58,468 nucleotides of DNA from a virus. Its lineage: Duplodnaviria; Caudoviricetes. Shown one piece after another: positions 12,759 through 58,239 of this stretch (position 1 is its first letter; each line of letters begins with the position of its first letter). The DNA lies in IMG/VR virus record IMGVR_UViG_3300032318_000380, positions 1 to 58,468 of that record. One strand, written 5' to 3'. The notes below the pieces were generated by a model. It worked only from the letters and a program-made list of their open reading frames with translations, ran no database searches and was not told the origin of the DNA. Both the position numbers and the translations under genes were made by a program.

Positions 12759-14342
12759 TCAGTATGATTTCTTCCCGTAGGCGTCAATCTTCTGAAGACG
12801 GCCAACGCCAGAACCAGAGCCAGCGGTCATGCCAAGGCCACCGCCATCAGCACGGCCCGGACGCGCGCCATACCACTCACCCTTCTGGAGCCTGCCCTCA
12901 CCGGAGCCAGCGCCAGCAGTCATGTGCTTGGTGCGGCCACCGTCACGGCGGGGCATCGGTCCTTCAGGGCCATTGGCACCCATGGCACCAATCATCGCGC
13001 CCAGATCAGGGGGCGCACCCACCGGGCCAGCACCCGGAGGCATCGGAGGCGGCATCGGCGGGCCACCCATCGGCAACGGCATGCCCGGAGGCATCGGAGG
13101 CAGCATCGGAGCGCCGGGGATGGGCATCGCAGGGGCCTTCGGCTCAGAGTTGATGGTGATGTTGATCACCGGGACCCTGCTGCTGCCCTTAGACTGCTTG
13201 TCAGTCTTGGCCTTGGGGTTGTTCATCTCTTCCCCGAAACCGCCGCCAGCGGCCTTCCCAATGCGTCCACCAGCCTTGCGGGCCTTGCGCTCACCTTCGT
13301 CCTCTTCCGCCTCTTCCTGCTCATGGTTGAGGTAGGCCTTCATGGCAGCGCCAACAGCGTGACCAATGGCCTTGTGGGCGTCATGGTCCACCTTGCCGCC
13401 TTTGGCATAGTTTGGCTCCACCAGAGGGCGGTCCTCATAGGGATCGCTCCCAAGAAGGCGTATCATCTTAGCCCTATCAGCGGCGCTGATGCTGGGCGAA
13501 CTCGGGATGGGCTTTACCATGCGCTTGGCTTGGTCAGGAGAAATGACCGGGCTTTTGCGGGTGTTCATAGTCATCCCTTCAGCGTAGGGATCGCGGCCCG
13601 CCATAAGAGCAGCCGCTTCCTTGGCAGACAGGCCACCGCCAGTGTCTTTGCCCTTGCGCAGGCCCGCCAGTGTTTTGGCGAGATTGGCGCGCTTCGCCAG
13701 CTTGGGGTTGTCGGACTTCGCAGCCTTCTCAAGCTTCTTGGCGGGAATTTTCTCGCCCATGGGGACGCCCAGAGACTTATGGAGCGCACCCGGCTTCTTG
13801 ATGGCCCCGGCAATCCAATTCTTATCGTTCTTATCGGTCTTACCGCCGGACTTCAGGCCCTTGGCGGACTGCTGCTTGTCGTGCTTCTCATCCAGCTTGG
13901 ACTTCTCCCAAGCCGCCATGGACATGCCGTGCTTCTTGGCAAGCTTCTTGTCCTGCTTCAGGTCGGACTTGGAATGCTCCCAAGTCTCCTTGGAGACCTT
14001 GCCGCCCTTCTTCATGCCGCCAACGTGCTTGATGCCATCACGTTCCTGATTGGCTTCCTTCACGTTGCGGTTAACAAGGCTGTTGGCGGTGATCGCCTTG
14101 CCACCGCTCTGGCGCTTCTTGCGGTCAGCACGGCCACCGCACATCTTGCCTTCCGGCTTGGCGTCAACCTTGCCGCCCTTCTTGTAGGTACGGCGGCTGA
14201 TCGGCCTCATGCCAGTCTTGGCATCAGCGTTCAGCAGATCGTAGGCTTCCCACCCAGAAGCATCAACCGAACCCTTCAGGGGGGCAGTCATGCGGGTGAT
14301 CTTGTCGTTCATGGCCTTCTTGGCCTGCTTGCGATATTCCAT
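12759..14342 (-). CDS. Lys-rich modular internal virion protein with many xxGG motifs
   Basis: 527 aa; about 11 [KRYM]xxGG motifs separating basic modules; duplicated MTAG.GSG.GRLQK; AAGGAG SD. Confidence 0.75.
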
Positions 14343-14369
14343 GCCCGTCTCCTTGGGGTTTAAGCGAGA

Positions 14370-14762
14370 TTACAGTTTTTCCGTCATTCTGCCAATCATT
14401 CTCGCAAGCCTGATGGCGGCCTTGATGTCTTCCTCAAGATTAGCGTCAACGTCATCGTCTACTGAGCCGCCAGATGCGTATTTAGAGGAAAGAAATTGCA
14501 TCATGGCGTCAAATGGCATCGCAGGTCTTCCAGCACCCTGCGGTTGCGGGGAACGGAAGCCTGCAAAGCCTGCTTGATCATTACCCCCGCGATCCTTCAT
14601 GCGGGGGGTGGCAATCATATTGAGCAGATTGAATAACTGAGGACGGGATTGCATAAAGGAACTAAATCCCCCGCCGTCCTGTGATCCGGTGTTCTGTGGG
14701 CCAGCATTCTGAATACCAGCGTTCATAGAACCCGTGCTTCCGCCGCCTTTTGTGCCGCCCAT
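14370..14762 (-). CDS. Small low-complexity protein with YASGGSV and IKAAIRLAR motifs
   Basis: 130 aa ORF tightly packed between neighbours. Confidence 0.6.
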   Translation of the reverse strand: MGGTKGGGSTGSMNAGIQNAGPQNTGSQDGGGFSSFMQSRPQLFNLLNMIATPRMKDRGGNDQAGFAGFRSPQPQGAGRPAMPFDAMMQFLSSKYASGGSVDDDVDANLEEDIKAAIRLARMIGRMTEKL

Positions 14763-14763
14763 G

Positions 14764-17700
14764 TCAGTAATTCCTTGTCAGTTCTAATGCTTCGTTAACA
14801 AAAAGGTCAGCCTCTGTGCTATCCGGGGAGAGATACGATCCCGCGCCCATGACAGCGGCAGTTGCTTTTGGATTTCTGCGAGCAAAGCCAAGGGCAGAAC
14901 GGCCAGCGGTTTTGAGCGCAGCCGCAGTCTGAGGCGTCAAGACAGCATTAAGCGCCAACCCTATAGGATCATCATTAAGGCGGCTTTCAGCAACGTCTAT
15001 TCCCAGCGCAATCGGAGCGGCAGCGCCAGAGAAATAAAGCGGCATCGTTTTGAAGTCATATGCACTTTGGGCCATGTTCTGAAGCCCTTCGGCCACATTG
15101 TACGGCGCGCTTCCAAGCGGGTATTCGCCGCCAAACAACGGCATGTTAATTTTCATGTCCGTGCGCGGAACAGGCGCGTCATGCGTCATTGACTGGGTGC
15201 TATACGGCTGAGAAGCCTTGGCCCGTTGAGCATTTTCATAGTAATCAACCTCACTTGCCAGCCGCATTTCTTCCCCTAGTTCTGGGTATTGAGCAGCAAA
15301 CTCAGCCTTCGCCTCTGGCGGCATGGCATTCCAATACTCAAGATCAGTAGGCTCACGATCACGCTTTATGCCACCCATTGCCTCTGCAATGTAAGCTTTC
15401 TTGGCCGCCATTTGTTGGGCGGCTTTGTCGGGATAACGTGGCTCTACTGGTGCCACGCTTTGCGGAACATTTGCGCCCTCCAGAGCAGCGTATGTTGCCT
15501 GCATGTCATCTTGTGACGCAGCGCCGCCAACATCCTTGGCAATGCGGAGAGCGTCATCAACGACACCTCCGTCAGCCTTCTCGTATGTCCACGGCGGCAT
15601 GATGCCCGTCTTCTGGTCGGCGTAAATCGTCTCAGCCGCATTGGCTCCACGGTTGTAGCTGCCATACGGGCCAAAGTTCAGCCAGCTATTCTGACCGCGC
15701 GTTTCGCTTGCCATGGCGGGGCGGGCCTCCGGTGAGTACATGCGGCTGTGCAGCTTGAAGGCCCGCTCCTCACCCGGTGCGCGGAAAAACGGATTGCCGG
15801 GGCCGTAGTGGCCGTACAGGTCATGCACGATGCGGAAGGCATCATTGACCGTTGCGTTCTCAAGGTCACCCAGAGGGCCGATGCGCGTCAGCAGCGGGTT
15901 GTTAACGGGGTCAAAGGCTACATCAGAACCAAAGCCCTGCTCAGTCGGGAAGACATACAGGTGGCCGCGCTCCGCCAGATCAGCGTAGCCCATGCCGGGA
16001 GAGGACTTGTAGGGGTCTTCGCCACGGATAAAGCTGAAGTCTATACCCGCCTGCTTTGCAGCCTCAAGCTGATCCAGCGTCTCCTGAGCCAGCGCATCAT
16101 AGGCGCGCTTGACCTCCGGGTCCGTAGGCGCGTGCTTCATCTCACCGTATGCACCAGCAACACGGCGGGCAAAGTCCTCATCCAACGGCGGGAAAGCGTC
16201 AATGGTATGCTCACCGGGCCTGCCAAGGCGCTTCATATAGCCCTCAGCCGCGCTCTCAAGAGATGGCAGGGGCTTGGCCTCAACCTCACCGATGCCGGGA
16301 AGCTTGACCGTTGCAGGCTTGCCGGGAAGGCCTTTGTAGCCAGACCCTGCCTTGGTCAGGGCTTCCAGACCCTCCCTTTCAGACGGGCCAAAAAAAGACT
16401 TCACGATTTTGGTGAATGCGCCGCCACCGCCTTTGGCAATGCGAATGGCATTGTCAATGTCCTCTTCTCCATCCTCACCCATAGCACCGACAGCAAGCGC
16501 ACCAGCAGGTGCAGCAATGCCATAGATCGGCATATCACCGCGCACCAAACCGCGCCGCACGACCTCTTCAGGAGGTACGCCAGTAAGGCGGCTTGTGCGC
16601 TCAATCGCTTCATTGACATGCTGGATCATTGGCATGCCCTGATAGCCGCCCTTACCCTTGCTTTTTAGGCCAGCCCAAGTGACCTCTTGGAAGTATCGCG
16701 GGTCAACATCGTATTCACGGGCCAGCATGTTGATGGCCTCTTCATAAGGGCCGTACCACTCTGGCATCTGGAGCTTGGGGTCAAAACCCTTTGACATTTG
16801 TTCGTCAATGGTCGGCTCTTTGTAGCCCAAGAAATTGTTTTGGAAGTTAAGCCGCTTTGGATTGTCGGGAGTTATCTCCTTCTCCATGTTGCGGCCAAAC
16901 ATGCCCATGTTGGAAGATGCGAAACGCCCGCCAATCGGGAATGGCATGTCATAGGCCGCCTCTGGTATCGGCAGGCCTTTTTCGCGCAGGAAATTGCCAT
17001 AATAAGACATGAGAAGATTGGATGTCGGATCAGCGCCGCCAGTGGTCAGCGCCATTGGTTTTGCAAAACGCTCCTTGAACTGCTTGCGCCCTTCCTCAGG
17101 CCCAAGTTCTTCAACGAACTTGTCCTCAAGCTGCTTCATAAAGTACCAGTTTTCAGCAACGTCCTTTTGCTCAAGGCCAGCAGTGTAGCCTTCACGCAAG
17201 CGTGAAAGACCTTCCGGGTCAAACGCCATGGCCCGGTACTTGGCCTGTGTTTCAGGCCGCACAGGCTTAACATCAATGGTTTTGCCCGTGCTGGGATAGT
17301 TAGACGGGTCAACGTCTGCACGCGCTCTTACATCAAAAAACGGATCATAGGAGCCAGCGTCAATGTCCTTCTGGATGACATCACGGGCCTTCTGGACCGC
17401 CAGCGCCTCAGGGGACAAGTCCTTGGCTAGATATTCTTTGCCTGTCTTTTTATCAAATGCCGTAACAGGCGGAGCCACTTCAGGGTAACGCTCTGCAAGT
17501 TCAGGGAAGACGCGGTTTGGCGTGCGCCCGGTTACCGCGTCAACAATGCTTCCAACCACATTTTTAACAACGCGCCCTTTGCCAGCGTAACCTTCTCGCA
17601 CTTGCCCACCTTCCGCCTTGGTAATGTCGGGGTTTGTAAAGTCATACTCACCAGTGTTGCTGACAGCCGACTTCACGCGCTTGGGGTCAAACACAAGGAA

Positions 17701-18243
17701 CTCCTCATCACGCGCTTCCTGAAACCCAAGGCGCGCATCCATGGCCCTGTCGCCGTAGGGAATGGGGTTGTCACCGCCAAACACAACACCGTCATAGCCC
17801 TCTGCCTCCATGGCGGCGCGAGCTTCAGGCGTCATGATGCGGGGGAAGTTCCTGTCGCCACTCTGATACTTGGCGGCTGCTTCCTTGATCTTTCTCGGGT
17901 GATCCAGAACCAAGGGATTACGAACGTCAGCGTAAACAGGCATGACGTTAGCGCCTTCCTTGAACTGGCTGGTCAATTCGCCAGAGGGGCCGCGCTCTGC
18001 CGACTGATGATAGGCGGGCTGAAAGTCGGGATACGGGCTGAGGAAAACAGCAGGGCCACTGCGGTTCTCAGGTGACGCGCGGAACTCAAAGATGTCCTCA
18101 GGCGTCATGTGATAGAGGCGCATGGGATCACCCTGCGGCGTCTTCAAGCGAGTATTGGCAAAGGCTTTCTTGGCGGCATCATTACCGCCACCCATGATCA
18201 GCTTCAGCGCCTGCTCAACAATATCGCCCTTACCCGCCATCAC
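14764..18243 (-). CDS. Polyvalent protein: ADP-ribosyltransferase-like + helical (HhH-like) + zincin-like domains
   Basis: YHMT...AVFLS...VMPVY...GYDGV...EEFLVFDP..VKS (ART-PolyVal pattern); NPKRLNFQNNFLG...TID; NDAFRIVHDLYGH...GEE...ETRGQNSW. Confidence 0.7.
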   Translation of the reverse strand: MMAGKGDIVEQALKLIMGGGNDAAKKAFANTRLKTPQGDPMRLYHMTPEDIFEFRASPENRSGPAVFLSPYPDFQPAYHQSAERGPSGELTSQFKEGANVMPVYADVRNPLVLDHPRKIKEAAAKYQSGDRNFPRIMTPEARAAMEAEGYDGVVFGGDNPIPYGDRAMDARLGFQEARDEEFLVFDPKRVKSAVSNTGEYDFTNPDITKAEGGQVREGYAGKGRVVKNVVGSIVDAVTGRTPNRVFPELAERYPEVAPPVTAFDKKTGKEYLAKDLSPEALAVQKARDVIQKDIDAGSYDPFFDVRARADVDPSNYPSTGKTIDVKPVRPETQAKYRAMAFDPEGLSRLREGYTAGLEQKDVAENWYFMKQLEDKFVEELGPEEGRKQFKERFAKPMALTTGGADPTSNLLMSYYGNFLREKGLPIPEAAYDMPFPIGGRFASSNMGMFGRNMEKEITPDNPKRLNFQNNFLGYKEPTIDEQMSKGFDPKLQMPEWYGPYEEAINMLAREYDVDPRYFQEVTWAGLKSKGKGGYQGMPMIQHVNEAIERTSRLTGVPPEEVVRRGLVRGDMPIYGIAAPAGALAVGAMGEDGEEDIDNAIRIAKGGGGAFTKIVKSFFGPSEREGLEALTKAGSGYKGLPGKPATVKLPGIGEVEAKPLPSLESAAEGYMKRLGRPGEHTIDAFPPLDEDFARRVAGAYGEMKHAPTDPEVKRAYDALAQETLDQLEAAKQAGIDFSFIRGEDPYKSSPGMGYADLAERGHLYVFPTEQGFGSDVAFDPVNNPLLTRIGPLGDLENATVNDAFRIVHDLYGHYGPGNPFFRAPGEERAFKLHSRMYSPEARPAMASETRGQNSWLNFGPYGSYNRGANAAETIYADQKTGIMPPWTYEKADGGVVDDALRIAKDVGGAASQDDMQATYAALEGANVPQSVAPVEPRYPDKAAQQMAAKKAYIAEAMGGIKRDREPTDLEYWNAMPPEAKAEFAAQYPELGEEMRLASEVDYYENAQRAKASQPYSTQSMTHDAPVPRTDMKINMPLFGGEYPLGSAPYNVAEGLQNMAQSAYDFKTMPLYFSGAAAPIALGIDVAESRLNDDPIGLALNAVLTPQTAAALKTAGRSALGFARRNPKATAAVMGAGSYLSPDSTEADLFVNEALELTRNY

Positions 18244-19946
18244 ATGCCTCCTTGCAGCCCGCGCGCTACATTCAACGCGCCTGAAACTGAGTTGTTACCG
18301 CCCATAGACCTCTGCGGCCTGCTGGACTGGTAGTCTTGGTCCGCCATTGATGCAGCAAGAGCCTGCTTGGGATCAAGCTGTTCCATCAGATTGTAACCCA
18401 GCATGGCGGATGCGCCTGCGATGCCGTACTTGCGGATGATGGAGATGAGCTTGTCATCAAAGACAACGTAGTTGCGGGTGCCGTCACCTGCGCCGCGCGA
18501 TCCAGCGTCTAGGTACTTGATGCCGGGGATGCCTGCTTCTTTGAGAATTTCCGTCGCGGCCTCTTTAGATGGGAATGGATTTGTCCCAGCGGCGCGCTCT
18601 TTACCAAGGGCGCGATATACCTCATCCCCACCAGCATCAGGGCGCAGCATTGATTGCCTGCCGCTCAAATAGCCGTCATAAGGCCACGGTGACGGCTTAA
18701 ACCCTAGATTGTCTGTAAGTATTTTCTTTAGCGCGGGCTGCTCACTCAACGGCTTGTCCCAGTCTAGGAACTGGTTAGGGTCGGCGTTGATGTTGACTTC
18801 GTACATCTTGCCGGGGTTTTTTCTGAACTGCGCCGGGTCAAGGGCATTCAGTTCCGAAACAATATCCTGCATTCCTTTCATGCGTTCCGGCAAAAGCTTT
18901 TCAAGTTCTGGCTTTCCCTTTGAAAGGGAAGCCATCTTGTCTATGTAGCTTTGCCACACAATAACCTGATCCGCGATTGCCGCTTCTGGTGACATTCCAT
19001 CTGCCACCAATTTCGCAACCGAACTAACAGCCCCCGCTTTAGCGTTATCCATTGGATGAGAGTTTGCTACGGGCTGCCCATCGTATGACACTTGGCGCGA
19101 AAGCTTGTCCCGATACCCCTTTGCCACGCCCTCATTCTCGGCAAAATACAGCCCATTCCCGTAAGCCTGCGCGCCCTCGCCCGTGCCAATCTTGCTGATG
19201 TCAAACTTGTCAAAATCATGCGGCGTTCCATGATACGCCCTGATGCCTGTCTTTGTAGGCTCATCTGCGCCGCTAAAAATCTTGCCCGCCATCTTTACGA
19301 TGTCATCAATTGCACCGCCGGGGCCATAGCCCTCACGGCGCGGCAGATCAGACACGCCCGCAGCTTCGTTAATGGCCTTGACCTCATCGTCGGTAAGCAC
19401 GCGGTTGACCCGCATGTCGCCGCCAATCAGCCATTCGCCAGTCATGTTAGGGTTGGTCTTGTAGCGGTAATAGCCGCCATAAGGCACCTGATCCGTAATG
19501 TGGGCGGTCTTGGGGTCAGGCGTCCCCTTCTTGGTCATGCGGGCGCGTTCATTGGCGACCTTTTGCCAATCAACATCATTCGCCATCTCAACCTCCCCCC
19601 ATACCTGATTGGAGGGCCGCGTATCAGGCGGGAGGCTTGGATCACCGTGCGACTTTGCACCAATGTGCGTTGCAATTGGAAGATCACCAGCGTGCCAGCC
19701 GGGGCGATATGCAAGCTCGCCAATCCTTGACTTTACTTTTCCGCTTGCCGCTTGAGGGCCAGCCGTAGCCTTCACCCATTGGTTCATGGGAACTTCTTCG
19801 TTAGCGCCGACAAATAGCGGGTAAAGCTTGCCCCCTTCCTGCTTGAAAAGCTTGTAAGCCTTAACGGTATTTTGCGGCTCTGCGCCAGCAATCAACCTCA
19901 TGGCGGCGTCTACAACATCGCCAACAATTTTCTTCTTGCCCGCCAT
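18240..19946 (-). CDS. Polyvalent protein: uncharacterised N-domain + ADP-ribosyltransferase-like domain
   Basis: AYHGTPHDFDKFD..KIGTGEGAQAYG.GLYFAE...GIPGIKYLD...NYVVFDD; N-domain KAYKLF...LYPLFV...LAYRPGWH. Confidence 0.75.
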   Translation of the reverse strand: MAGKKKIVGDVVDAAMRLIAGAEPQNTVKAYKLFKQEGGKLYPLFVGANEEVPMNQWVKATAGPQAASGKVKSRIGELAYRPGWHAGDLPIATHIGAKSHGDPSLPPDTRPSNQVWGEVEMANDVDWQKVANERARMTKKGTPDPKTAHITDQVPYGGYYRYKTNPNMTGEWLIGGDMRVNRVLTDDEVKAINEAAGVSDLPRREGYGPGGAIDDIVKMAGKIFSGADEPTKTGIRAYHGTPHDFDKFDISKIGTGEGAQAYGNGLYFAENEGVAKGYRDKLSRQVSYDGQPVANSHPMDNAKAGAVSSVAKLVADGMSPEAAIADQVIVWQSYIDKMASLSKGKPELEKLLPERMKGMQDIVSELNALDPAQFRKNPGKMYEVNINADPNQFLDWDKPLSEQPALKKILTDNLGFKPSPWPYDGYLSGRQSMLRPDAGGDEVYRALGKERAAGTNPFPSKEAATEILKEAGIPGIKYLDAGSRGAGDGTRNYVVFDDKLISIIRKYGIAGASAMLGYNLMEQLDPKQALAASMADQDYQSSRPQRSMGGNNSVSGALNVARGLQGGM

Positions 19947-39582: not shown

Positions 39583-40704
39583 TTACAGATAGAGAATGTT
39601 TGCCGAACCAGCGGCAGTAAAGTTTCCAGAAACAGGCGAAAGCTGAACGCGATCCAAAACGCCAGACAGAGTTATTCTTCCGCCGCCAAACATTGAGTAA
39701 TTGGCGCTTTCAGCACCAAGGGTATGATCACATACCCATGTGTTCCCACTTATATTCGTGATCCTGATTGTTCCGGAAGCAATCAAGCTTCCTAGGTTCA
39801 CAAAAAACCCAACAGTTGAGTTTGCAGAGCCGCCATCTCCGCCGGAACCACTGTCTTGTTGAAAATTGCTTCCTGTACTCTGGTATCCAGTCGTTACAAC
39901 GCCTGAAGATGTCCCAAGGCGAACTAAGACGTCAGTGGAAGAGGCAGTACCCATTTGAGCAACAGAGATGGTGATCATCTTGGCTGTTGCAGGGATTGAG
40001 GTGAACGTAATGCTGGAGCCAGAAAAGGCCTGCGATGTCCCCTGAACCGGGACGCTTTGCCAAGATGGATTGGCGGCGGCCCCGTTTGTCCTCAGAAGCT
40101 GACCGTTTGTGCCAGCGGCCAACCTGACCCATGCAGACGCTCCGCGATACAGAAGGTCACCTTGCGCCTGACTGGGGATGGTGATCACAGAGCCATCTAC
40201 GTTGCTCCAGCTAGGTGTGGTGGTTGATCCGCCAGAGAGCAGAACCTGATTGGCGGAGCCGTAGTTCGCACCTGCAATGCCAATAGCGCCTGCTGAGTTA
40301 ATTTCAAAGCGGGAGGCCATGGTGTTTTCAGTAGTGCCGGGTGTGACGCTTGCGGGTGCAGTCTGAAAAATGATTTTGCCTGATCCGCCCGTCCCGGTTC
40401 CATTGATGGCGTCAATCGTCAGGTTGGGGCCAATGGCATTGGTGCCAGTGCGCTTTGCGCCGCGAATGGTAGGAGCCGTGACTGTGTTCGTGCCATCACC
40501 ACTGCCGAGGATCATCGTGCCGCCAGCGATGACGGTGCCGCCAGCGTTTAGGGTCTTGCCCGTGCCGACCTGAAGGCCAACAGATGTACCTGATCCATTG
40601 TCAGCAAATACGTTGTCAATGATGGTAAGGTCATTATTGAGCGTACTACCCCAGCCCGTGCTGACGTTAGGAGTGGGGAGGATCAATCCAGCAAGATTTG
40701 GCAT
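39583..40704 (-). CDS. Tail fibre-like protein
   Basis: 'WGSTLNNDLTIID' anchor-like N-terminus; fibre repeats 'GSANQVLLSGG...PSW', 'GTNGQLLRTNG...PSW'. Confidence 0.7.
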   Translation of the reverse strand: MPNLAGLILPTPNVSTGWGSTLNNDLTIIDNVFADNGSGTSVGLQVGTGKTLNAGGTVIAGGTMILGSGDGTNTVTAPTIRGAKRTGTNAIGPNLTIDAINGTGTGGSGKIIFQTAPASVTPGTTENTMASRFEINSAGAIGIAGANYGSANQVLLSGGSTTTPSWSNVDGSVITIPSQAQGDLLYRGASAWVRLAAGTNGQLLRTNGAAANPSWQSVPVQGTSQAFSGSSITFTSIPATAKMITISVAQMGTASSTDVLVRLGTSSGVVTTGYQSTGSNFQQDSGSGGDGGSANSTVGFFVNLGSLIASGTIRITNISGNTWVCDHTLGAESANYSMFGGGRITLSGVLDRVQLSPVSGNFTAAGSANILYL

Positions 40705-42410
40705 TATGTATTGCCCTTTGCAATGTTAAGAGCGGTTGCGATTGCGTCATCCGGCACAGATAGCATGGATGCGGTTTTTTCGGAAAGCAGGGTGCGGACC
40801 TTGCGGACTTCGGCGCTGATGGGGTTCTTGATCCTGCCGCCAGATTTGCGAGCTACACGACCGCCAGCATTCTCTGACACAGGCAAGCCGCCGCCCGGAA
40901 TGTCTATTTCGGTAGGGGTGGACTGCTGAACCGCTGCGCTTGACCCCAAAGCGGCGCGCGCTCTTGCTTCCGTCTTTGATATTGCGTCTCGCACTGCGGC
41001 TTTTTCTTGCGCGCTACGGCCAGCGAGAACGGTCTTGATGGCATTCTCAACGCCGCGCTGAGTGTAAACTTCCATGAATTTTCGCGCAAGATTTGAGCCA
41101 ATCAAAGGGACAATCGCACCAGTCACATCGCCCATTGCATAACCAAGGCTACCAAGAGCAATCTGCCCGAGACGGCTCCCTGCCCCATGAAGGGGGTTGA
41201 GAACGCCCTCGCGGGCCACGACCGATTGGAAAGCGGCCTTTTCCGCATCGCTCAATGTTTGGAAATTCTTCTTTCCGTAGCTCGCAAACTGGTTTCTTAG
41301 TCCGCTTTCTGGTCCTGATACATACCATTCGCCCCTGTCTTTCATCTTGCTTATGTCGCGCGCAATGATGCGGCGGCGGGCAAGCTCTTTTGCCTGCTTG
41401 ACAAGACTGTTTACTTCATTGGCGGGTAGTGTGCCATTGGTGATCAAAGCGCCGCGCTCGCGGACATCCTTGATTTTTTCAAGTATCTTGGAGGTGAACA
41501 ATTTTTCAGTCGCATCTAGAGTTGACCGCATGATGCCAGTGGCAATGCGCTCCATCTCATCAAGGTCCTGAAAGTCCATGCCTTGACCGGAAAACTTTGC
41601 AAACTCTTCACGCAGTCCAGCGGCCTTCGGGGCCAAATTTGGATTGATGCGAAACTGCGAGACATCGGTAATGGCGGCGTCCACCGCGTTGGCATCGTAT
41701 TTGATGCCAGCAGACCTCAGACGATTGTAGGTGTCGTTAACCCTGCGCTCTAGCTGGGCGTATGCCTTGTCACTCTTGCCGACATTCTTCAGCAACTCTT
41801 TAGTGCCAGCACCACCCCTGCCAGCCGCCAGCAGTGACGCGCCAATGCCCGCAGCCGCTTCAGCCACGGGGTTCCCACCAGACACATCCTTGGCGGCCTC
41901 CATGGATACACCCGGCAGCACAGCCATAGCACCCTTGCGGACAAGGCTTCCCGGCCCTGCTACTGCGGAAGGAACCATCTCAGCAGTCCGCCCAATATAC
42001 CGCCCAATGTCAGTCTGCGGCTTGTACTTCGGGCCAATAATGCTCTCTGCAAAAGCTCCGACATCTCCTGACGTTGGAAGCTGCGGCAGGCCGAGAGACT
42101 TAGCCCCCTCCTGAACCTCAGGCGAAAAACCAAGCTTTCCAGCGCCCCAAGACGCGCCCATGCCAGCAAGCTGCTGGACATCACCGGGAAGCCCGACAAT
42201 GCCCTGAATACCGCTCTGGATGCCCTGAGCCGTACTCATGCCGACATCGGCAAGCGTCTCACCCAAAGACCTTTCACGGCTAGTCTTTTCCGCCACATTG
42301 ACCGTCTGCGGGGCGGGAAATTTTGCCCGCATTGCAGCCTCTATGGCCTCCTTGGGTGTGCCAGCAGGGAATTTGGCAGTTCCGCCATCAGGTGTTTTGA
42401 CGGTGATCAT
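40704..42410 (-). CDS. Internal virion/DNA ejection protein
   Basis: 568 aa, Ala/Gly-rich helical, hydrophobic segments; follows large ejection gene; C-terminal RKSGGRI and IATALNIAK. Confidence 0.65.
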   Translation of the reverse strand: MITVKTPDGGTAKFPAGTPKEAIEAAMRAKFPAPQTVNVAEKTSRERSLGETLADVGMSTAQGIQSGIQGIVGLPGDVQQLAGMGASWGAGKLGFSPEVQEGAKSLGLPQLPTSGDVGAFAESIIGPKYKPQTDIGRYIGRTAEMVPSAVAGPGSLVRKGAMAVLPGVSMEAAKDVSGGNPVAEAAAGIGASLLAAGRGGAGTKELLKNVGKSDKAYAQLERRVNDTYNRLRSAGIKYDANAVDAAITDVSQFRINPNLAPKAAGLREEFAKFSGQGMDFQDLDEMERIATGIMRSTLDATEKLFTSKILEKIKDVRERGALITNGTLPANEVNSLVKQAKELARRRIIARDISKMKDRGEWYVSGPESGLRNQFASYGKKNFQTLSDAEKAAFQSVVAREGVLNPLHGAGSRLGQIALGSLGYAMGDVTGAIVPLIGSNLARKFMEVYTQRGVENAIKTVLAGRSAQEKAAVRDAISKTEARARAALGSSAAVQQSTPTEIDIPGGGLPVSENAGGRVARKSGGRIKNPISAEVRKVRTLLSEKTASMLSVPDDAIATALNIAKGNT

Positions 42411-46391: not shown

Positions 46392-46862
46392 TTAATCTTT
46401 ACGCGGCGGAGGAAGCTTCTGGAGGGTTGCAATGGTGGTTGCCCTCTCAGATTTCACCCAATCGTCCAGCGCCTTGTGACCAGTGTCCAAGTCACCGCCA
46501 CCAAAACCCCTCACGGCATCAGGCGGAATAACGTACTCACCGCCAGCCGCCACAATGGCGACCGGATTGGCTTGATCCATTTCGTTAACATCACCGCCAG
46601 AAGCCATGCGCTGCTTGATCATGTAATCAATGATGTCAAAGCCATGCTCCGTGTTGCCCTCACCAATGGCGGAAATAATGTCCGCCGGGATGACATAGGA
46701 GCCAGATGGAACGTGCATTGGGAGATGGTCTGTCCGACCTGCAACAGGTGACTTGATTGCGCCTGTGTGAAGTTTTGTGGCCCCGCCAATCGGTGTGGCA
46801 GGCTGTGGCGTCTTCTTGGCTAGAGCCAGTGCCTTGGAGATGGTTTTGGAGCCTTTTTGCAT
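46392..46862 (-). CDS. Stand-alone internally duplicated G(E/S)YVIP-domain protein
   Basis: Two repeats: 'GSYVIPADIISAIGEGN...G' and 'GEYVIPPDAVRGFGGGD...G', separated by MASGGDV. Confidence 0.7.
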   Translation of the reverse strand: MQKGSKTISKALALAKKTPQPATPIGGATKLHTGAIKSPVAGRTDHLPMHVPSGSYVIPADIISAIGEGNTEHGFDIIDYMIKQRMASGGDVNEMDQANPVAIVAAGGEYVIPPDAVRGFGGGDLDTGHKALDDWVKSERATTIATLQKLPPPRKD

Positions 46863-46863
46863 G

Positions 46864-47235
46864 TTAGCTCTCCGAGTATGTCAGCGACACAGTAACGCCT
46901 GCGCTGGGTTTTACAACAAGGCCACTGAAAAACGGCACGTTAACTTGATAGAGGCCGGGATTGCTTGTTGGTATATCGTAGATCACATTTGATGTGGTGG
47001 CCGTAGCAACCGTAGCCGCGTCATGAATTGTTCCGCCAGCAGTCCCGCTGAAAATGACGTTTACCAGCCTGCCAGCGCCAGTGTAAACCAAGTTGCTGTC
47101 AGTGGCCCCAAGGTAAGTGTTATTGCCGATAGACTGAGTGTAAATCTCGCGGAAAGAATTAAGCGCCGCCGTGAGGTCATTCATGGCAACAACGCCATTC
47201 TTCAGAACGGTTACTATGTCATCTAGGTTAGCGAT
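46864..47235 (-). CDS. Small tail-associated protein (possible ATC start)
   Basis: In-frame ATC at 47235 sits 5 nt after AGGAGG; first ATG (47184) lacks an SD. Confidence 0.6.
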   Translation of the reverse strand: MANLDDIVTVLKNGVVAMNDLTAALNSFREIYTQSIGNNTYLGATDSNLVYTGAGRLVNVIFSGTAGGTIHDAATVATATTSNVIYDIPTSNPGLYQVNVPFFSGLVVKPSAGVTVSLTYSES

Positions 47236-47281
47236 GGCACCCTCCTATTGATATGGATGGAATTTGTGGTAAGTATTGGCA

Positions 47282-47770
47282 ATGATGACGCCTGAAGAAC
47301 TCCGCAAAATGTTTGAATACAACCCAGAGAATGGCTTGCTGTTTTGGAAAGTCAGAAACAGCAAAAGAGTTCATGTGGGCGATGTTGCGGGGTGCAGGGC
47401 GTCTGATGGAAGGATTTTGATTGGCATCCATGGGAAGATTTATAAGGCCCATAGGATTGCATGGGCCATAACAACTGGAGAATGGCCTAAAAAAATAATT
47501 GACCACATTAACAATGACCCGTCCGACAATAGGCTTTGCAACCTTAGGGAGGCAACAAAATCCCAAAACATGATGAATGTTGGGAAAATAAAATCCAACA
47601 CTTCTGGAATTAAGGGGGTTGGCTGGAGCAAGGTTTCCCAGAAATGGAGGGCATACATTAAAGTTGGCAACAAGAATATTCATCTTGGCCTTTTCCATGA
47701 CATTGAGGACGCTAAAAAAGCAAGAACTGAAGCAGCCATTAAGTACCATGGTGAATTTTCCCATGATTAG
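47282..47770 (+). CDS. HNH-AP2 homing endonuclease (antisense to tail operon)
   Basis: 'YNPENG...AHRIAW...IDHINNDPSDNRLCNLR...N...NTSGIKGV.W...KW...HLGLF...A'. Confidence 0.9.
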   Translation: MMTPEELRKMFEYNPENGLLFWKVRNSKRVHVGDVAGCRASDGRILIGIHGKIYKAHRIAWAITTGEWPKKIIDHINNDPSDNRLCNLREATKSQNMMNVGKIKSNTSGIKGVGWSKVSQKWRAYIKVGNKNIHLGLFHDIEDAKKARTEAAIKYHGEFSHD

Positions 47771-50592
47771 TAGCGTCCGTCTGGTTGGTAGCGATACCGG
47801 ATAGCTCCAAGCCTCCAGAAGCTATTCAGGTCTGTGCTGGAGACACCGATTGCCACCAACCTCCCGCGCATGCGAACGCTCAGGTACTGCGTGTTCTGCG
47901 TGACCGTATATGGCCCGTATTCAATCGGCGGATCACCGGGGTAGTTGGTCACGAAGAACGTAATCTTGACCTGAGCGGTCTTCTCTTCGTCTACAAAACC
48001 CCACTTCATGTCAGGCCACACCTGATCAATGAAGATCATGTTGTCGCCGTCCGCCAAGTTGGCATAGCCAGTGGTGAAGCCTGCCTCCATGGCGGCACCA
48101 TCAGCATTGTTGCTGGTTTCGTGCTGGTAGACAAAGAAACCGCTTGTCTCGCCCACAACGCTTGTCGCAGCGGCGGCACCAATAGGCCCGCCAAAAATGG
48201 ACTGGTCAATCCACGCCGTTCTGCCCACAAGAACCGCCGGGTTGTCAGGGTGCTGGTATCCGTAATCCCACTGGTTCAGCGCAATGTTGTACTTCACATA
48301 AGCATTAACTTCGCCCGTGCCGATTTGCATTTGGCTCAGGTTCAATCCCGTGGCGGGGTCAATGTCATATGTGTAGTGCGCCGGGAAGTGCCATGTGATC
48401 TCGTTAAACTGGCTATTGGGAGCGCAGCGAATGCGATCCGTGTATGGATTTCCATTTTCATCGTTTCCGGGGAACAGGTTCTGGAACACTTGGTCCCACA
48501 CTGGACACGGTATAGGCTCAACGCCTTGCCCAGCAAAACGAAAGAACTGCCGCTGGCTCATCCAATACACGGCACCGCTCATCTGGCCCGCCGCCTTCTG
48601 GGAAATCAAGCCAGCATTTGCGCCAATTTTGTTGAAGCCGTATATGTAAGGCTGGCCGATATAGGTCATGGACCACAGGTCAAGGTCAGTCCACAGGAGC
48701 GCCTGCTGAGGAGCCTGAAGACCGCCGACAATTTTGGAGCCTGTCGGGATGCGGTAGCTGCCAGCCTGATTGAAGGCGGTTCCCTGCCAGACCGTGAAGT
48801 CTTCAAGATCACACCAGCGCACAAGAAGAGGGTCTTGGATTGATCCAAAGGAAGACCCGTATGCAATGACCTGCCTTTGAGGCATGGCAACAAACGCGCC
48901 CGCGTTGTAGACGGGCGAATTTGGCATATAGCTTAAGTTTTGAACAGCACTGCCAACTGGCTGCCAGTAATACGTTGTGCCGTTCTTGGGACACGCGACA
49001 AGGATGGAACCCCAATTGTCAAATGTCCAATCTACGGCAGTAATTGGCGTACCGTCAGTAGAGGCCTCCACAAAGCCGCTACCATAAAGACCTTCGTTGT
49101 ATATGCCGCCGCCGTATACGAAGTTGTCACCTTGGTCTGCCGAGACAACGCTGACAAAAACTTCTGAGCGGATTTGTCCGTTATTTTCGTATGCGTTTGC
49201 GCTGCTGGTCGCCGGAAGGTCGGAGGTTATTTCAAACTGGTCTACAGTATTGACTTTTGTTACTGTGTAAAGGCCAGATATTGCCACCCCGCCAACGGTT
49301 GTTGAGATTGGCACATTGAATGTGTCACCAACCGCATAATTATGATTGATCAAATCAACGGTTACTGTTGCTCCGCCAGCAACAACCGTGAACTTTGGCG
49401 GCAAACCGCCGAATGTAACGCGCGGAGTTACAGAGCCGCCGTAAGATGTTGCGGCGGTTGCTACACCAGTCTGTGTGTATGTAATTGTCGCATCGGTCAC
49501 GGATGTGATGGTGAAGCTTCCATTAAATGTGGCAGTATCAACGCCGCCAACATAAATTGTCTGCCCAGCATAGAATGAATGCGAGTTGGCGAAGCGGACA
49601 GTGACCGTTCTGTCAGCGCCAGCAGTGACGGCGGTGATCTTTGAGATAAATGTCTGGACTTCAGGCACATTGATCGTCAACAATCCTGAGCCGATAGTGA
49701 CAATATCGTATGGCCCAAGAAGGTTGATGTTCCCAACATTTACAATGGTTGGGAAAAATATGTATGACGCGGAGCTTGGAATAAGAGGCGTGTAGAATGT
49801 AAGCGCAGATGCGTTGCTTGCAGTTGTAAAACCAGCGCCAATGGCAAACGTGATGGCGGTGGTGCCAACGGTAACTGCGGAGCTATTGGTGCAGTAGTAA
49901 TACCTGTTGGAGTTTGTTGTCCCGGCAGAAACGAAAAACAAAGAACCTAGAACAATGTCTGCTGAGACATCAAAGTCAGTGGCGCGCGTCAAGACCCAAG
50001 CAACAGCGCCGCTACCAACAGTCGTAACTGTGTAGACACCGTTTTGAAAGCCAGTCGTTTGGTTCTTTACCAACACGCGATCAGAGACGGACAGAGCAAC
50101 GCCGTCTATCTGAAGCGCCGCCAAAGTTCCTGAATTGGTCAGGGTAGCGTTTAGACCAGCAGTGCCGTTCGCATACGTTGCCGTAAGATTTGCGGTCGTG
50201 GCAACGCGAACGTCCGTCTTGGGTATTGTGGTGTTTAGGCTGCTTCCGGTCGTATAGACACTGGATGCACCATCCTGCTGTAGAATGCGGGGCGTGACAT
50301 CAAGCAGTGAGTTATCGGCTTGGCGGAACACCTCAACGCCAACATCACTCTCGCCGCCAATTGCGAGGTACTTGGTGTATTCCAGATCGCTCCAAGCTTT
50401 CAGCGCGCGGATAGGGGCAGAGAACGAACTGGAAATAAACCGCGTCCATCCGCCAAGCTTCTGCACAAGGCCAAGGCCATCCCGGTCGGGCATGAAGCGC
50501 ACAAGGTCAGTGTAGGACACCGCCACTTCGTTGAGTGTGGGCGTCTTGTTGGTGTCAACACCCGGAACAATCTTGAGGGTCTGGTGCGGCAT
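47767..50592 (-). CDS. Tail nozzle/tubular protein B-like (P22 gp10-like) with inserted beta domains
   Basis: 941 aa; 'PGV...VRF...KLGGW', 'WTFDNWG', 'DPLLVRWCD.ED...W...NQAG', 'WRLGAIR...PDGR'. Confidence 0.75.
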   Translation of the reverse strand: MPHQTLKIVPGVDTNKTPTLNEVAVSYTDLVRFMPDRDGLGLVQKLGGWTRFISSSFSAPIRALKAWSDLEYTKYLAIGGESDVGVEVFRQADNSLLDVTPRILQQDGASSVYTTGSSLNTTIPKTDVRVATTANLTATYANGTAGLNATLTNSGTLAALQIDGVALSVSDRVLVKNQTTGFQNGVYTVTTVGSGAVAWVLTRATDFDVSADIVLGSLFFVSAGTTNSNRYYYCTNSSAVTVGTTAITFAIGAGFTTASNASALTFYTPLIPSSASYIFFPTIVNVGNINLLGPYDIVTIGSGLLTINVPEVQTFISKITAVTAGADRTVTVRFANSHSFYAGQTIYVGGVDTATFNGSFTITSVTDATITYTQTGVATAATSYGGSVTPRVTFGGLPPKFTVVAGGATVTVDLINHNYAVGDTFNVPISTTVGGVAISGLYTVTKVNTVDQFEITSDLPATSSANAYENNGQIRSEVFVSVVSADQGDNFVYGGGIYNEGLYGSGFVEASTDGTPITAVDWTFDNWGSILVACPKNGTTYYWQPVGSAVQNLSYMPNSPVYNAGAFVAMPQRQVIAYGSSFGSIQDPLLVRWCDLEDFTVWQGTAFNQAGSYRIPTGSKIVGGLQAPQQALLWTDLDLWSMTYIGQPYIYGFNKIGANAGLISQKAAGQMSGAVYWMSQRQFFRFAGQGVEPIPCPVWDQVFQNLFPGNDENGNPYTDRIRCAPNSQFNEITWHFPAHYTYDIDPATGLNLSQMQIGTGEVNAYVKYNIALNQWDYGYQHPDNPAVLVGRTAWIDQSIFGGPIGAAAATSVVGETSGFFVYQHETSNNADGAAMEAGFTTGYANLADGDNMIFIDQVWPDMKWGFVDEEKTAQVKITFFVTNYPGDPPIEYGPYTVTQNTQYLSVRMRGRLVAIGVSSTDLNSFWRLGAIRYRYQPDGRY

Positions 50593-55574: not shown

Positions 55575-56909
55575 TCACCATGAATAAACCACACAGCGGC
55601 CATTACCGCCCGCACCAGAAGCGCCGCCAGTCGTGCCGCCACCGCCGCCACCGCCGCCGCCGCCACCGGGAACACCACCATTGCCACCAGCACCGCCCGT
55701 GACGGTTCCGCTTGCCCCACCCCCGCCTCCTTGTCCCATCTTTGTTCCCATGCCTGTTGATGTGAAATCGCCGTCTGCCCCAGCCGTGCCAGCCCCGCCA
55801 TCACCTGTGCCACCAGCACCGCCACCGCCTGCGGCTGTCACGCTCATGCCAGCGTTGCCGCCTGCGCCGCCATTGTAGGCAGTAGAAGTGATTAAAGAGC
55901 CACCACTCCCACCTCCTGCGGCAGAGAAGCAAGAAGAGCCTCCAGATTGACCGATGCCGCTTACAGCGGCTGTTGAAGCCGAGCCTGCGCCACCACCACC
56001 GCCAAGATAGGAATTTGACGCCGCAACAGCAGAAGTTGAGCCGTTACTTCCGCCCGCTCCTCTATCGTCTGCAAATGAAGTTGCTGCGGCGGATGCTGCA
56101 AATGCAGAGCCACCAGCCGCTCCCCCACTATTTGTTGAGGTAGCGCCCACCGTTGTGCCACCACCGCCGCCACCGCCTCCACTACCAATTGTGGCATTTT
56201 GAAAACCACCGCCTCCACCACCATAGGCCGTGAGGAATGTTCCAAACAATGACGTTCCGCCGCCGTTTCCGTCTGTGGCCGCAGCAACAGATACACCACC
56301 CGAGGCGATGGTCACACCGACTGATGACGGAAGATCATTCGCAAGAAACAGCATCTGCATTCTCTTAGCACCACCGCCTCCAGCACCGCCTGATGCGTTC
56401 GTCGCCGCAGATGCTCCACCGCACCCTCCACCGCCCCCGCCACAAAGATTAACCAGCGAATAGGTGGCATTGTTTGGCCGCGTCCAAGTTCCGTTGGTGC
56501 TAAAAACTTGGATATTACTTACGGCATTCGTCGCCACAACGATGTTTCCGGCAGCATCTACTACCGTCCACCCGTTTATATCGGTGTATTGAAGCGTAGA
56601 ATTGGGAGCGAGAAGGAAACCCGCAAGATAGTCATAGGTCGTGGCGTTGTCATTTAGCCGGATCGTGACGGCGACAAAATCAGTGTCTTTGTTGCAGACG
56701 CTAAGATAATTTACTTTACGCTGCGTAGAAGCCGCAGGAGCGGCAACGATGTCTACCGCGCTGGCGTCATTGCTGGACGAAACCGTCAGCCCCGGCGTTG
56801 TTGTGGTGGATGTGAAATCAACCCAATCAGCCGTAATGGCACACTGATTGGCAGCGACAGTGGCTCCGAGTAGCAACTGGATTTTCTTTGTTGTTGCGTC
56901 AAGTATCAT
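55575..56909 (-). CDS. Gly-rich fibre/adhesin-like virion protein (paralog 3)
   Basis: 444 aa; shared N-domain, FSTNGTWTRP, polyglycine tracts. Confidence 0.8.
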   Translation of the reverse strand: MILDATTKKIQLLLGATVAANQCAITADWVDFTSTTTTPGLTVSSSNDASAVDIVAAPAASTQRKVNYLSVCNKDTDFVAVTIRLNDNATTYDYLAGFLLAPNSTLQYTDINGWTVVDAAGNIVVATNAVSNIQVFSTNGTWTRPNNATYSLVNLCGGGGGGCGGASAATNASGGAGGGGAKRMQMLFLANDLPSSVGVTIASGGVSVAAATDGNGGGTSLFGTFLTAYGGGGGGFQNATIGSGGGGGGGGTTVGATSTNSGGAAGGSAFAASAAATSFADDRGAGGSNGSTSAVAASNSYLGGGGGAGSASTAAVSGIGQSGGSSCFSAAGGGSGGSLITSTAYNGGAGGNAGMSVTAAGGGGAGGTGDGGAGTAGADGDFTSTGMGTKMGQGGGGGASGTVTGGAGGNGGVPGGGGGGGGGGGTTGGASGAGGNGRCVVYSW

Positions 56910-56910
56910 A

Positions 56911-58239
56911 TCACCACCCGTAAACCACTACGCGGCCAGCCGCGCCGTTTCCGCCCGCACCACCCGTGGATGTGCCACCGCCTCCACCGCCTCCACCGCC
57001 TCCGGGGAAGCCACCGTTACCGCCTGCATAACCTGCACCGCTACCATTAGCAGCCCCGCCTCCCCCACCTGCACCGCATTTTGTGCTGCCTCCAGCCGCG
57101 CCGTTGCCGCCTGCTGCGCCAGCGCTTGCCGAACCGCCGCCGCCTGCTGCGGTTGCTCCCCACCCTGCATTGCCCCCCGCAAATGGTAAAGAAGATGATA
57201 TATTTGAACTGCTTATCCCTTGGCCTGATCCGCCCCCGCCAGCGGAAAATACGGATGACCCGCCAAGGTTATTCCCACCTGCACTGTTAGTAGCCCCGCC
57301 TCCTCCACCCCCGCCTAAATACGAATTACCACCCGAAATATCTGCGCCAGCATCTCCTCCACCCCCGCCTATATCTGTGGCGTAAGATGTTGAAGCAACA
57401 GAAATTGCAAATGCAGCGCCTCCAATGCCCCCTGTTTGAGATGTAGAACTTGTTCCTGCTGATGTCCCTCCTCCACCGCCGCCTCCACCGCCAAAAGCGG
57501 ATGTCGTTGCTCCTGCACCGCCGCCCCCACCATAAGAGATTAAATACGTTCCAAAAGATGAACTATCACCTGCGGAACCGTTATTAGTCGCTATAGCGCC
57601 CGTTTTTGTTTGCGCTACTGTAATGCTGACGTTGGAAGGCGAAGAAGGTAAATCCCCCGCATTAAAATACGCAACGGTGCGTTTGCCTCCGCCCCCTCCT
57701 CCACCGCTGCGTCTAGGAGTAAGCGTAGCCCCTCCCCAGCCTCCGCCACCTGCTCCACCGCCGCCAACACACTCAACATAAACCATGCTGACACCGGCAG
57801 GCTTCGTCCAAGTGCCGGATGCAGATGTAAACACCTGAACATCAGAATATGTCGGTGCGTTGGTAACGAGTATCTGGCCTGCCGAGTTGATGACATACCA
57901 TCCGCGCGCATCAGTGAACTGAAGAGTGCTATTTGCAGCAAGCGTCAAGTTCTGCACGACAGAATAGTCTGTGCCGTTGTCATTTATGACGATGGTGATG
58001 AAGATATTAACTGTATCGTAATTACAGACCGAGATTGCATTTACCTTGCGCTGCGTACTGGATGCTGGAGCCGCCAGAATATCAACCGCAGTTGTGCTGT
58101 TTGTGTTGCTGACTTGCACTCCCGGTGTAGTCGCAGAAGAGGTCATCTCAACATAATCAACAACGACACGCGCCTGATTGGTCGTGATTGCAGAACCAAG
58201 AACGATCTGAAGTTTTTGAGTTGTAGTTGTCAGAAACAT
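56911..58239 (-). CDS. Gly-rich fibre/adhesin-like virion protein (paralog 2)
   Basis: 442 aa; shared N-domain, [15 protein letters not shown], polyglycine tracts. Confidence 0.8.
   Translation of the reverse strand: MFLTTTTQKLQIVLGSAITTNQARVVVDYVEMTSSATTPGVQVSNTNSTTAVDILAAPASSTQRKVNAISVCNYDTVNIFITIVINDNGTDYSVVQNLTLAANSTLQFTDARGWYVINSAGQILVTNAPTYSDVQVFTSASGTWTKPAGVSMVYVECVGGGGAGGGGWGGATLTPRRSGGGGGGGKRTVAYFNAGDLPSSPSNVSITVAQTKTGAIATNNGSAGDSSSFGTYLISYGGGGGAGATTSAFGGGGGGGGGTSAGTSSTSQTGGIGGAAFAISVASTSYATDIGGGGGDAGADISGGNSYLGGGGGGGATNSAGGNNLGGSSVFSAGGGGSGQGISSSNISSSLPFAGGNAGWGATAAGGGGSASAGAAGGNGAAGGSTKCGAGGGGGAANGSGAGYAGGNGGFPGGGGGGGGGGTSTGGAGGNGAAGRVVVYGW

Follow-up and report, generated by a model that had tools for sequence, protein, structure and literature searches.

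A duplicated hairpin-helix module in a putative ejection protein of a short-tailed phage, with likeness to a unit of tape-measure proteins

What does a small protein built around a duplicated motif ending in G(S/E)YVIP do in a short-tailed phage? The question is raised by one gene in a virus record of 58,468 bases (hereafter the window, the whole stretch of DNA that was analysed), which is 98% complete and carries the gene as one copy. The initial annotation regarded the gene product as a candidate stand-alone reader or protease that recognises xxGG tags on other proteins in trans, and linked it to the C-terminal region of siphovirus tape-measure proteins. Podovirus ejection proteins and tape-measure proteins do the same job, in that both are out first and build the DNA conduit, and to our knowledge no sequence element shared between the two groups has been recognised so far. 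As set out below, we favour a virion-internal ejection protein with a module that seats the protein at the exit channel and leads it out, a reading for which we consider the balance to be about even.

The interval singled out by the initial annotation is exactly one ORF (Table 1), with a Shine-Dalgarno-like GGAGAG 8 nt ahead of its ATG. The ORF is packed tightly, beginning 1 nt past the stop of a 106-aa ORF and ending 2 nt ahead of the start of a GNAT acetyltransferase gene. It is encoded among the late/virion genes of a portal-terminase phage: nearly all genes of the window lie on the minus strand, and they include terminase, an SU10-type portal, a major head protein, collagen-like and other fibre proteins and, for replication, a primase/helicase and a replication initiator.

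Table 1. Positions of the module gene, its parts and the other proteins discussed, in window coordinates.
Feature	Position	Strand	Basis
Module ORF, 156 aa: N-terminal helix motif plus duplicated hairpin-helix module	46392..46862 (stop included)	-	
Short helix KTISKALALAKK, residues 5-17	46812..46850	-	AF2 helix 5-16, motif count, relatives
Unit 1, residues 28-85: GRTDH, hairpin ...PSGSYVIP, short helix, GEGNT, long helix	46608..46781	-	
MASGG, residues 86-90: in-cis xAxGG tag separating the units	46593..46607	-	
Unit 2, residues 96-156	46395..46577	-	
Virion structural protein, 941 aa (phrog_3287), "nozzle-like" from its position	47767..50592	-	
106-aa ORF upstream of the module gene	46864..47184	-	
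GNAT acetyltransferase, 170 aa	45877..46389	-	
Ejection protein, 1152 aa	42407..45865	-	phrog "DNA ejection protein", Peptidase_S74 stretch, lysozyme-like region, several xxGG tags
C-terminal ~48 residues of 568-aa protein (gene 40704-42410): AGGRV tag plus helix DDAIATALNIAK	40707..40850	-	
Three presumed head-internal proteins encoded after the portal and a 568-aa ART-PolyVal protein: 1159 aa (ART-PolyVal), 130 aa and 527 aa (basic), with the other tags and helix motifs	12759..18243	-	

The two G(E/S)YVIP repeats reflect a true internal duplication, as judged both by self-alignment and by comparison of family profiles. Local alignment of the two halves pairs GSYVIPADIISAIGEGNTEHGFDIIDYMIKQRMAS with GEYVIPPDAVRGFGGGDLDTGHKALDDWVKSERAT and scores 63, compared to 24.4 +/- 4.5 for shuffled sequences (0 of 500 shuffles as high), and profiles of repeat 1 and repeat 2 made from the family match each other in hhalign with a probability of 97.2% (E = 2.8e-11). 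The D/N-x-P element originally ascribed to the repeat was imprecise, since unit 1 reads D45-H-L-P48 and unit 2 N99-P100. Both tags are present, with GG stretches ahead of each unit (PIGGA at residues 24-28 and MASGG at 86-90). An AF2 model based on a 53-sequence alignment (mean pLDDT 84, pTM 0.73) predicts two hairpin-plus-helices repeats, the first with strands at residues 46-52 and 56-58 and helices at 60-66 and 71-87, and the second with strands at 100-106 and 110-112 and helices at 114-120 and 125-149. In unit 2, these correspond to the hairpin PVAIVAAGGEYVIP, a short helix, the GGGD loop and a long GH..LD helix, followed by the C-terminal ...LQKLPPPRKD. An N-terminal helix (residues 5-16) is predicted with lower confidence; its sequence, KTISKALALAKK, is a reduced copy of an I..A[IL].[IL]A[KR] helix motif that is phrog_2423-like in relatives.

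Pfam and NCBIfam contain no family for the module protein at E values up to 10, and neither PF09718 (Tape_meas_lam_C) nor the polyvalent-protein-associated domains in Pfam match the module. In PHROGs, the sole match is phrog_11341, a family with no known function. A PDB sequence-profile search gave chance-level matches only (E of 0.32 and above), Foldseek against the PDB matched no solved fold (best E = 0.43), and a wide VIA-align search reached a best Z of 3.8, its rows being dominated by the long C-terminal helix. Matches in BFVD were restricted to uncharacterised proteins of uncultured phages, and the nearest named cluster in the ESM Atlas, a crAss cargo domain (0.83), is below threshold. 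The protein has no hydrophobic segment (the maximum 19-residue Kyte-Doolittle mean is 0.92, and no segment reaches 1.6) and is near neutral, with a pI of 6.97. The strings GRTDH, GEYVIP, GSYVIP, GEFVFT and AAGGEY were not found in the searched literature, and FATGG and YATGG occurred, among the matches listed, only in DNA primers. The duplicated module is previously undescribed and represents a large family without a name.

The size of this family is evident from a phmmer search of 1.84 billion representatives, which returned 2,283 clusters (50% identity) at E <= 1e-3, and from a word-indexed search that gave 2,751 relatives of similar length, many on contigs of ~60 kb. Members belong to uncultured phages and some alphaproteobacterial prophages; in a collection of cultured phages, relatives were found in 5 of 50,697 records, none of them a characterised phage. 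A cultured-phage handle on the unit is provided by Synechococcus phage MinM2 (locus L096, 6302-7186), where a 294-aa "calcium-binding protein", flanked by a tail protein and a giant protein annotated as RelA/SpoT, has one unit, with 48.6% identity over query residues 48-84.

The module is the constant end of these proteins. It finishes at most 8 residues from the C-terminus in 372 of the 373 members examined, which range from 108 to 1220 aa in length and have their own in-cis tags. Its description as free-standing therefore holds for this phage but not for the family. Long relatives have a helix motif of ~45 residues at the start, a variable middle and the module at the end, and the middle can contain an ADP-ribosyltransferase, GNAT, SLT or many unnamed segments. 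When ten long members were scanned, the phrog_2423 helix motif was present at the N-terminus of three, ART-PolyVal in two and SLT in one. A precomputed Pfam domain is on record for 11 of the longer relatives inspected (the best 120 of 738): PF18760 in seven, PF18760 together with GNAT families in one, and PF13489, PF18823 or PF00293 in the others, presumably a methyltransferase, a pyrophosphatase and a NUDIX domain, respectively. The family marks the place where these phages attach variable cargo enzymes, which should help in the annotation of metagenomic phages and in the search for injected anti-host effectors.

The context of the gene is similarly constant. We surveyed 80 IMG/VR loci, in 66 of which a simple ORF caller recovered the module, the other 14 being left out of the counts. 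The order is fixed, with a nozzle-like tail protein, a small protein, the module gene, a GNAT acetyltransferase and a giant ejection protein following each other. A homologue of the 941-aa protein lies within 4 genes upstream of the module in all 60 loci with a 3 kb flank, and one of the 106-aa ORF within 2 genes upstream in 31 of 65 related loci. Downstream, a GNAT homologue is found within 2 genes in 48 of 54 loci and the giant ejection protein within 4 genes in 34 of 35. Prophage-like regions in assemblies of the cultured Alphaproteobacteria Rhizobium lusitanum, Ancylobacter, Boseaceae and Acidisoma carry the block as well. In a second, P22-like arrangement, a module-bearing protein of 639 aa is the first among the ejection-like genes.

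Several other features of the window were noted. The sole plus-strand gene in the tail/ejection block, located between the nozzle-like and 106-aa genes (47276-47770), encodes an HNH/AP2 homing endonuclease (Pfam HNH_3, E = 1.9e-17; phrog_99, E = 1e-74); a 178-aa antisense ORF overlapping it is probably spurious. Similar DNA is found in the same place in three of the surveyed loci (L017, L037 and L039) and just upstream in a fourth (L073). In the 1152-aa ejection protein, the Peptidase_S74 (endosialidase chaperone) stretch comprises residues 283-329 in the first third of the chain, whereas this domain is normally found C-terminally in fibres; the stretch may mark a point of self-cleavage that splits the protein. 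The same protein has a tandem repeat (~350-395 and ~434-485) of the form ..GGVVG..G(F/Y)...GG(M/V)P..Y(G/S)GS.G(F/Y)IP....SKIPGP, which, judged from its sequence, resembles a decayed form of the tag-plus-hairpin element that has no helices. Finally, two adjacent paralogues of about 443 aa with 62 and 66 GG dipeptides, both matching phrog_863 ("tail fiber assembly"), are encoded at 55575-58239 on the minus strand.

We next turn to the tape-measure proteins. The string that the initial annotation gave for lambda gpH, FATGG...GEFV...YATGG, is correct (...FHFATGGFTGTGGKYEPAGIVHRGEFVFTKEATSRIGVGNLYRLMRGYATGGYVG...), and the proposed link is supported by hhalign with shuffle controls and by an HMM made from tape-measure sequences only. 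A first search for relatives of the gpH C-terminus gave 120 near-identical E. coli proteins that were unfit for a profile, and these were replaced by 14 diverse phage loci, giving a profile of 15 sequences with lambda. Repeat 2 matches this profile with a probability of 84% (E = 7e-6) and a score of 30.0, a value reached by none of 200 column shuffles (9.8 +/- 2.2, maximum 18.8) and compared to 6.8 for the reversed profile; for repeat 1, the probability is 12%, making unit 2 the portion of the module closest to the tape-measure unit. When the tape-measure-only HMM was run against 1,087 ORF products from the window and the 80 loci, the top 40 matches were all module proteins (best E = 5.7e-6), some alignments spanning both tag and hairpin, and the 41st fell in an ejection protein, in its tag region. 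The module protein of the window itself scores weakly in this search (E = 0.22, 7.7 bits), hhalign against lambda gpH alone gives a probability of 10.9%, and the genomes of 5 tape-measure phages gave no match to a HMMER profile of the entire module. With only about 25-40 residues in common, convergence of a short structural motif is possible.

The tape-measure unit itself is widespread, occurring in 1,093 phage records from many hosts, including a P2-like myovirus. In gpH, it lies at ~735-790, outside and downstream of the region covered by PF09718 (627-701). This places it within gpHC, the ~14 kDa fragment that is cut from gpH; according to structural work, the last residues of gpHC (818-849) bind the tip protein gpI, and its N-terminal part (about 690-817, including the unit) is unresolved in the structure (PMC12617516). 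The module protein is not itself a tape-measure protein, a candidate ruled out by its length of 156 aa and its location in a podovirus-like block between nozzle-like and ejection proteins. In Arthrobacter phage ArV2, the tape-measure unit and a trailing GYAKGG tag are directly followed by a candidate peptidase stretch, which we take to be of the M23 type; if so, the unit can sit just ahead of a cell-wall hydrolase.

The constant gene position, the C-terminal placement of the module with cargo ahead of it, the head-associated helix and the likeness to tape-measure proteins point to an ejection module. On this reading, the short-tailed phage would carry the small gene product inside its virion as an ejection protein with two parts, a short N-terminal helix motif common to other head-internal proteins and a compact C-terminal module. 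Each unit of the module would run from an xAxGG turn through a beta-hairpin that closes with G(S/E)YVIP and a short helix to a G-x-G(D/N) loop and, last, a long helix. The module is the constant end, and relatives place variable cargo between it and the N-terminal helix. It may seat the protein at the exit channel (the portal or nozzle lumen) and then lead or accompany its exit into the cell envelope, carrying fused or associated cargo along. We infer this seating and exit role because the single-copy unit lies, with FAxGG/YAxGG on its flanks, in the C-terminal fragment of lambda-type tape-measure proteins, which remains at the tail tip and is first out. If the unit is indeed shared at the exit end of both groups, it would provide an evolutionary and mechanistic link between ejection proteins and tape-measure proteins, and would single out gpH ~735-790 within gpHC as a specific, mutable stretch.

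One property of the module counts against seating. An alignment of 374 members, made without dereplication and counting 120 close relatives among them, has 42 positions conserved in 93% or more of the sequences, and 14 of these are polar: R43, T44, D45, H46, D61, S64, E68, N70, T71, E109, H129, D133, R140 and T146. Such strongly conserved polar residues are more in keeping with a catalytic or metal site than with a passive anchor, and the site could serve in catalysis or binding.

The proposal of the initial annotation that the protein acts in trans was based on the unit being free-standing and on xxGG motifs being dispersed over many proteins. The loose pattern is not enriched (30 observed versus 30.5 +/- 5.6 expected in 77 ORF products), and we rejected it. 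The stricter [FYKRM]A.GG is modestly enriched (9 versus 4.4 +/- 2.2 expected; 13 of 300 shuffles as high) and is confined to five proteins, namely the 527-aa, 130-aa and 1159-aa post-portal proteins, the 1152-aa ejection protein and the module ORF. The I..A[IL].[IL]A[KR] helix motif has a comparable distribution, with 5 occurrences versus 0.15 expected (0 of 500 shuffles as high, for a pattern written after examples had been seen): one in the 130-aa protein, two in the 1159-aa protein, one at the C-terminus of the 568-aa protein and one at the N-terminus of the module ORF. Across 25 homologues of the 568-aa protein (15-24% identity), good conservation is limited to the C-terminal tag and helix. 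Columns that do not vary are G524 and G525, the GG of RA.GGRV, and T546, L550, D554, A560, L561 and A564 in the terminal helix, and the motif is present in all 27 loci carrying the gene.

These observations would suit a docking hub, a broader version of the initial proposal in which the module binds the xAxGG tag and/or the I..AL.IA[KR] helix in trans and gathers the internal proteins into one complex prior to ejection, given that only presumed internal proteins have the tags and helix motifs. We nevertheless consider a hub unlikely. The N-terminal helix motif is found in 219 records of cultured phages that lack the module, compared to 5 with the module in the same collection, showing that the motif is independent of the module. 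Moreover, in tape-measure proteins a single chain contains both tag and unit, arranged as in the module family, and there is no separate module, while the module itself bears the same helix and tags, which makes it look like a client rather than a receptor. Of 353 family members, 294 have an AxGG 5-14 residues (5th-95th percentile) ahead of the AAGGE hairpin in unit 2, and 188 have one no more than 45 residues ahead of the GRTDH in unit 1 (20 of the 373 members that did not have one of the two anchor patterns were left out). The xAxGG tag is therefore an in-cis part of the repeat.

The helix motif and the tagged proteins merit some additional remarks. In Acinetobacter phage AB1 (locus L137, 3501-3599), the N-terminal motif forms the first 33 residues of an annotated head maturation protease beside the head genes, and in phage K1-5 (locus L138, 3001-3150) the helix motif is a stand-alone 49-aa ORF (gene 48). 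Both large proteins encoded after the SU10-type portal of the window (14764-18243 and 18240-19946, minus strand) have ART-PolyVal (ADP-ribosyltransferase) stretches. The 527-aa protein (12759-14342, minus strand), for which no family was matched, is very basic and of low complexity, with a Pro/Gly/Met-rich stretch and five [KR].GG[KR][VIAT] repeats; proteome-wide, the pattern of these repeats occurs 7 times versus 0.6 expected (0 of 300 shuffles as high).

Tags are also found at domain borders in cargo-bearing relatives, and in the 1159-aa protein ART-PolyVal (37-199) is directly followed by the tag KAEGGQV at 209; relative P0140 has a like arrangement. Such bracketing of domains would be consistent with a processing peptidase, i.e., a new small metal- or Ser/His-dependent type, located at the C-terminus, that cuts at xAxGG and frees the cargo. 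H46, S64, E109, H129 and D133 are near-invariant, and in the predicted model H129-x3-D133 lies on one helix face; the module is practically always C-terminal, and no prohead protease was recognised in the 40 window ORFs scanned, with libraries that may miss one. In addition, Iyer et al. (2017; PMC5512222) have proposed that autoprocessing is a recurrent feature of polyvalent proteins. Still, a peptidase seems quite improbable. No peptidase family or fold was listed by Pfam, NCBIfam (both to E = 10), the PDB sequence-profile search, Foldseek (best E = 0.43) or VIA-align (best Z = 3.8), the single tape-measure unit does not have the His and Asp of the long helix, and Gly-Gly stretches are also ordinary flexible linkers.

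An effector acting on the envelope would make another use of the polar site, which would bind or modify the peptidoglycan stem, lipopolysaccharide or a periplasmic protein as a first penetration step. Relative P0236 joins the module to SLT, the module gene neighbours that of the lysozyme-like ejection protein, the tape-measure unit of ArV2 precedes the stretch presumed to be an M23-type peptidase, and the polar residues are strongly conserved. Family and fold searches revealed nothing resembling the known domains of cell-wall binders or hydrolases, and we regard such an effector as distinctly doubtful. A broader form of the peptidase reading considers tag plus hairpin as a self-contained processing element, the duplicated form of which, with its invariant His/Asp/Glu site, would be a new small peptidase cutting internal and cargo proteins at xAxGG during packaging or ejection, with the tape-measure copy marking or helping to catalyse the cut from gpH to gpH*. 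A 2025 study calls both the site and the catalyst of that cut unknown (PMC12617516). We think that this version is very unlikely to be correct.

The hairpin - I/V-P - helix - G.G(D/N) unit also recalls what we take to be the arrangement in swapped-hairpin DNA binders of the AbrB/MazE type, raising the idea that, within the channel, the leading end of the DNA is held by the module. This is extremely improbable: ejection proteins of cyanophage A4 do contact DNA (PMC12002296), but AbrB/MazE/SpoVT has no Pfam match at E = 10 and is absent from the listed fold matches, and the protein is near neutral.

How does the putative ejection module compare with known systems? Ejection operons of podoviruses usually comprise a small gene followed by two large genes (PMC8954989). 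As with T7 gp14 and P22 gp7, the module gene is the first small gene of the ejection block, past the tail genes and before those for the large proteins, and its product is in a similar size class (156 aa, compared to 181-240 aa for proteins of the T7 gp14/P22 gp7 type; PMC8954989). There is no match in sequence or fold, a GNAT gene is interposed here, and the module protein has none of the 2-5 transmembrane helices predicted for those proteins.

MuF/SPP1 gp7 and the polyvalent proteins similarly combine a constant virion-associated domain with variable enzyme cargo such as ART-PolyVal, and are encoded by late genes. They are an unrelated family, and it is in the module family that the constant part is C-terminal. 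Polyvalent proteins have two or more domains including effector enzymes, whereas the window protein is without cargo and its relatives carry ART-PolyVal, GNAT or SLT. DdrB of phage P1 likewise has a C-terminal module on a packaged multidomain protein, in that case a proposed metallopeptidase, for which autoprocessing has been suggested (PMC5512222). The peptidase reading discussed above arose from this analogy; unlike DdrB, the module has no HEXXH motif and no match to a zincin fold.

The closest likeness in sequence is to the lambda-type tape-measure proteins. The host proteins differ, since a tape-measure protein is a long helical ruler of long-tailed phages and the module protein has 156 aa and belongs to a short-tailed phage. 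The unit is present as a single copy in the former and is duplicated in the module, which also has the GRTDH segment and the GH..LD helix that lambda-type units do not have. Common to both are xAxGG, a spacing of ~10 residues and the pattern P.G(I/V)V..GE(F/Y)V(F/I)..(E/D)A...(I/F)G.G(N/D)L, and in both the unit lies near the C-terminal end of a protein that leaves, or in the case of the module protein would leave, the virion before the DNA.
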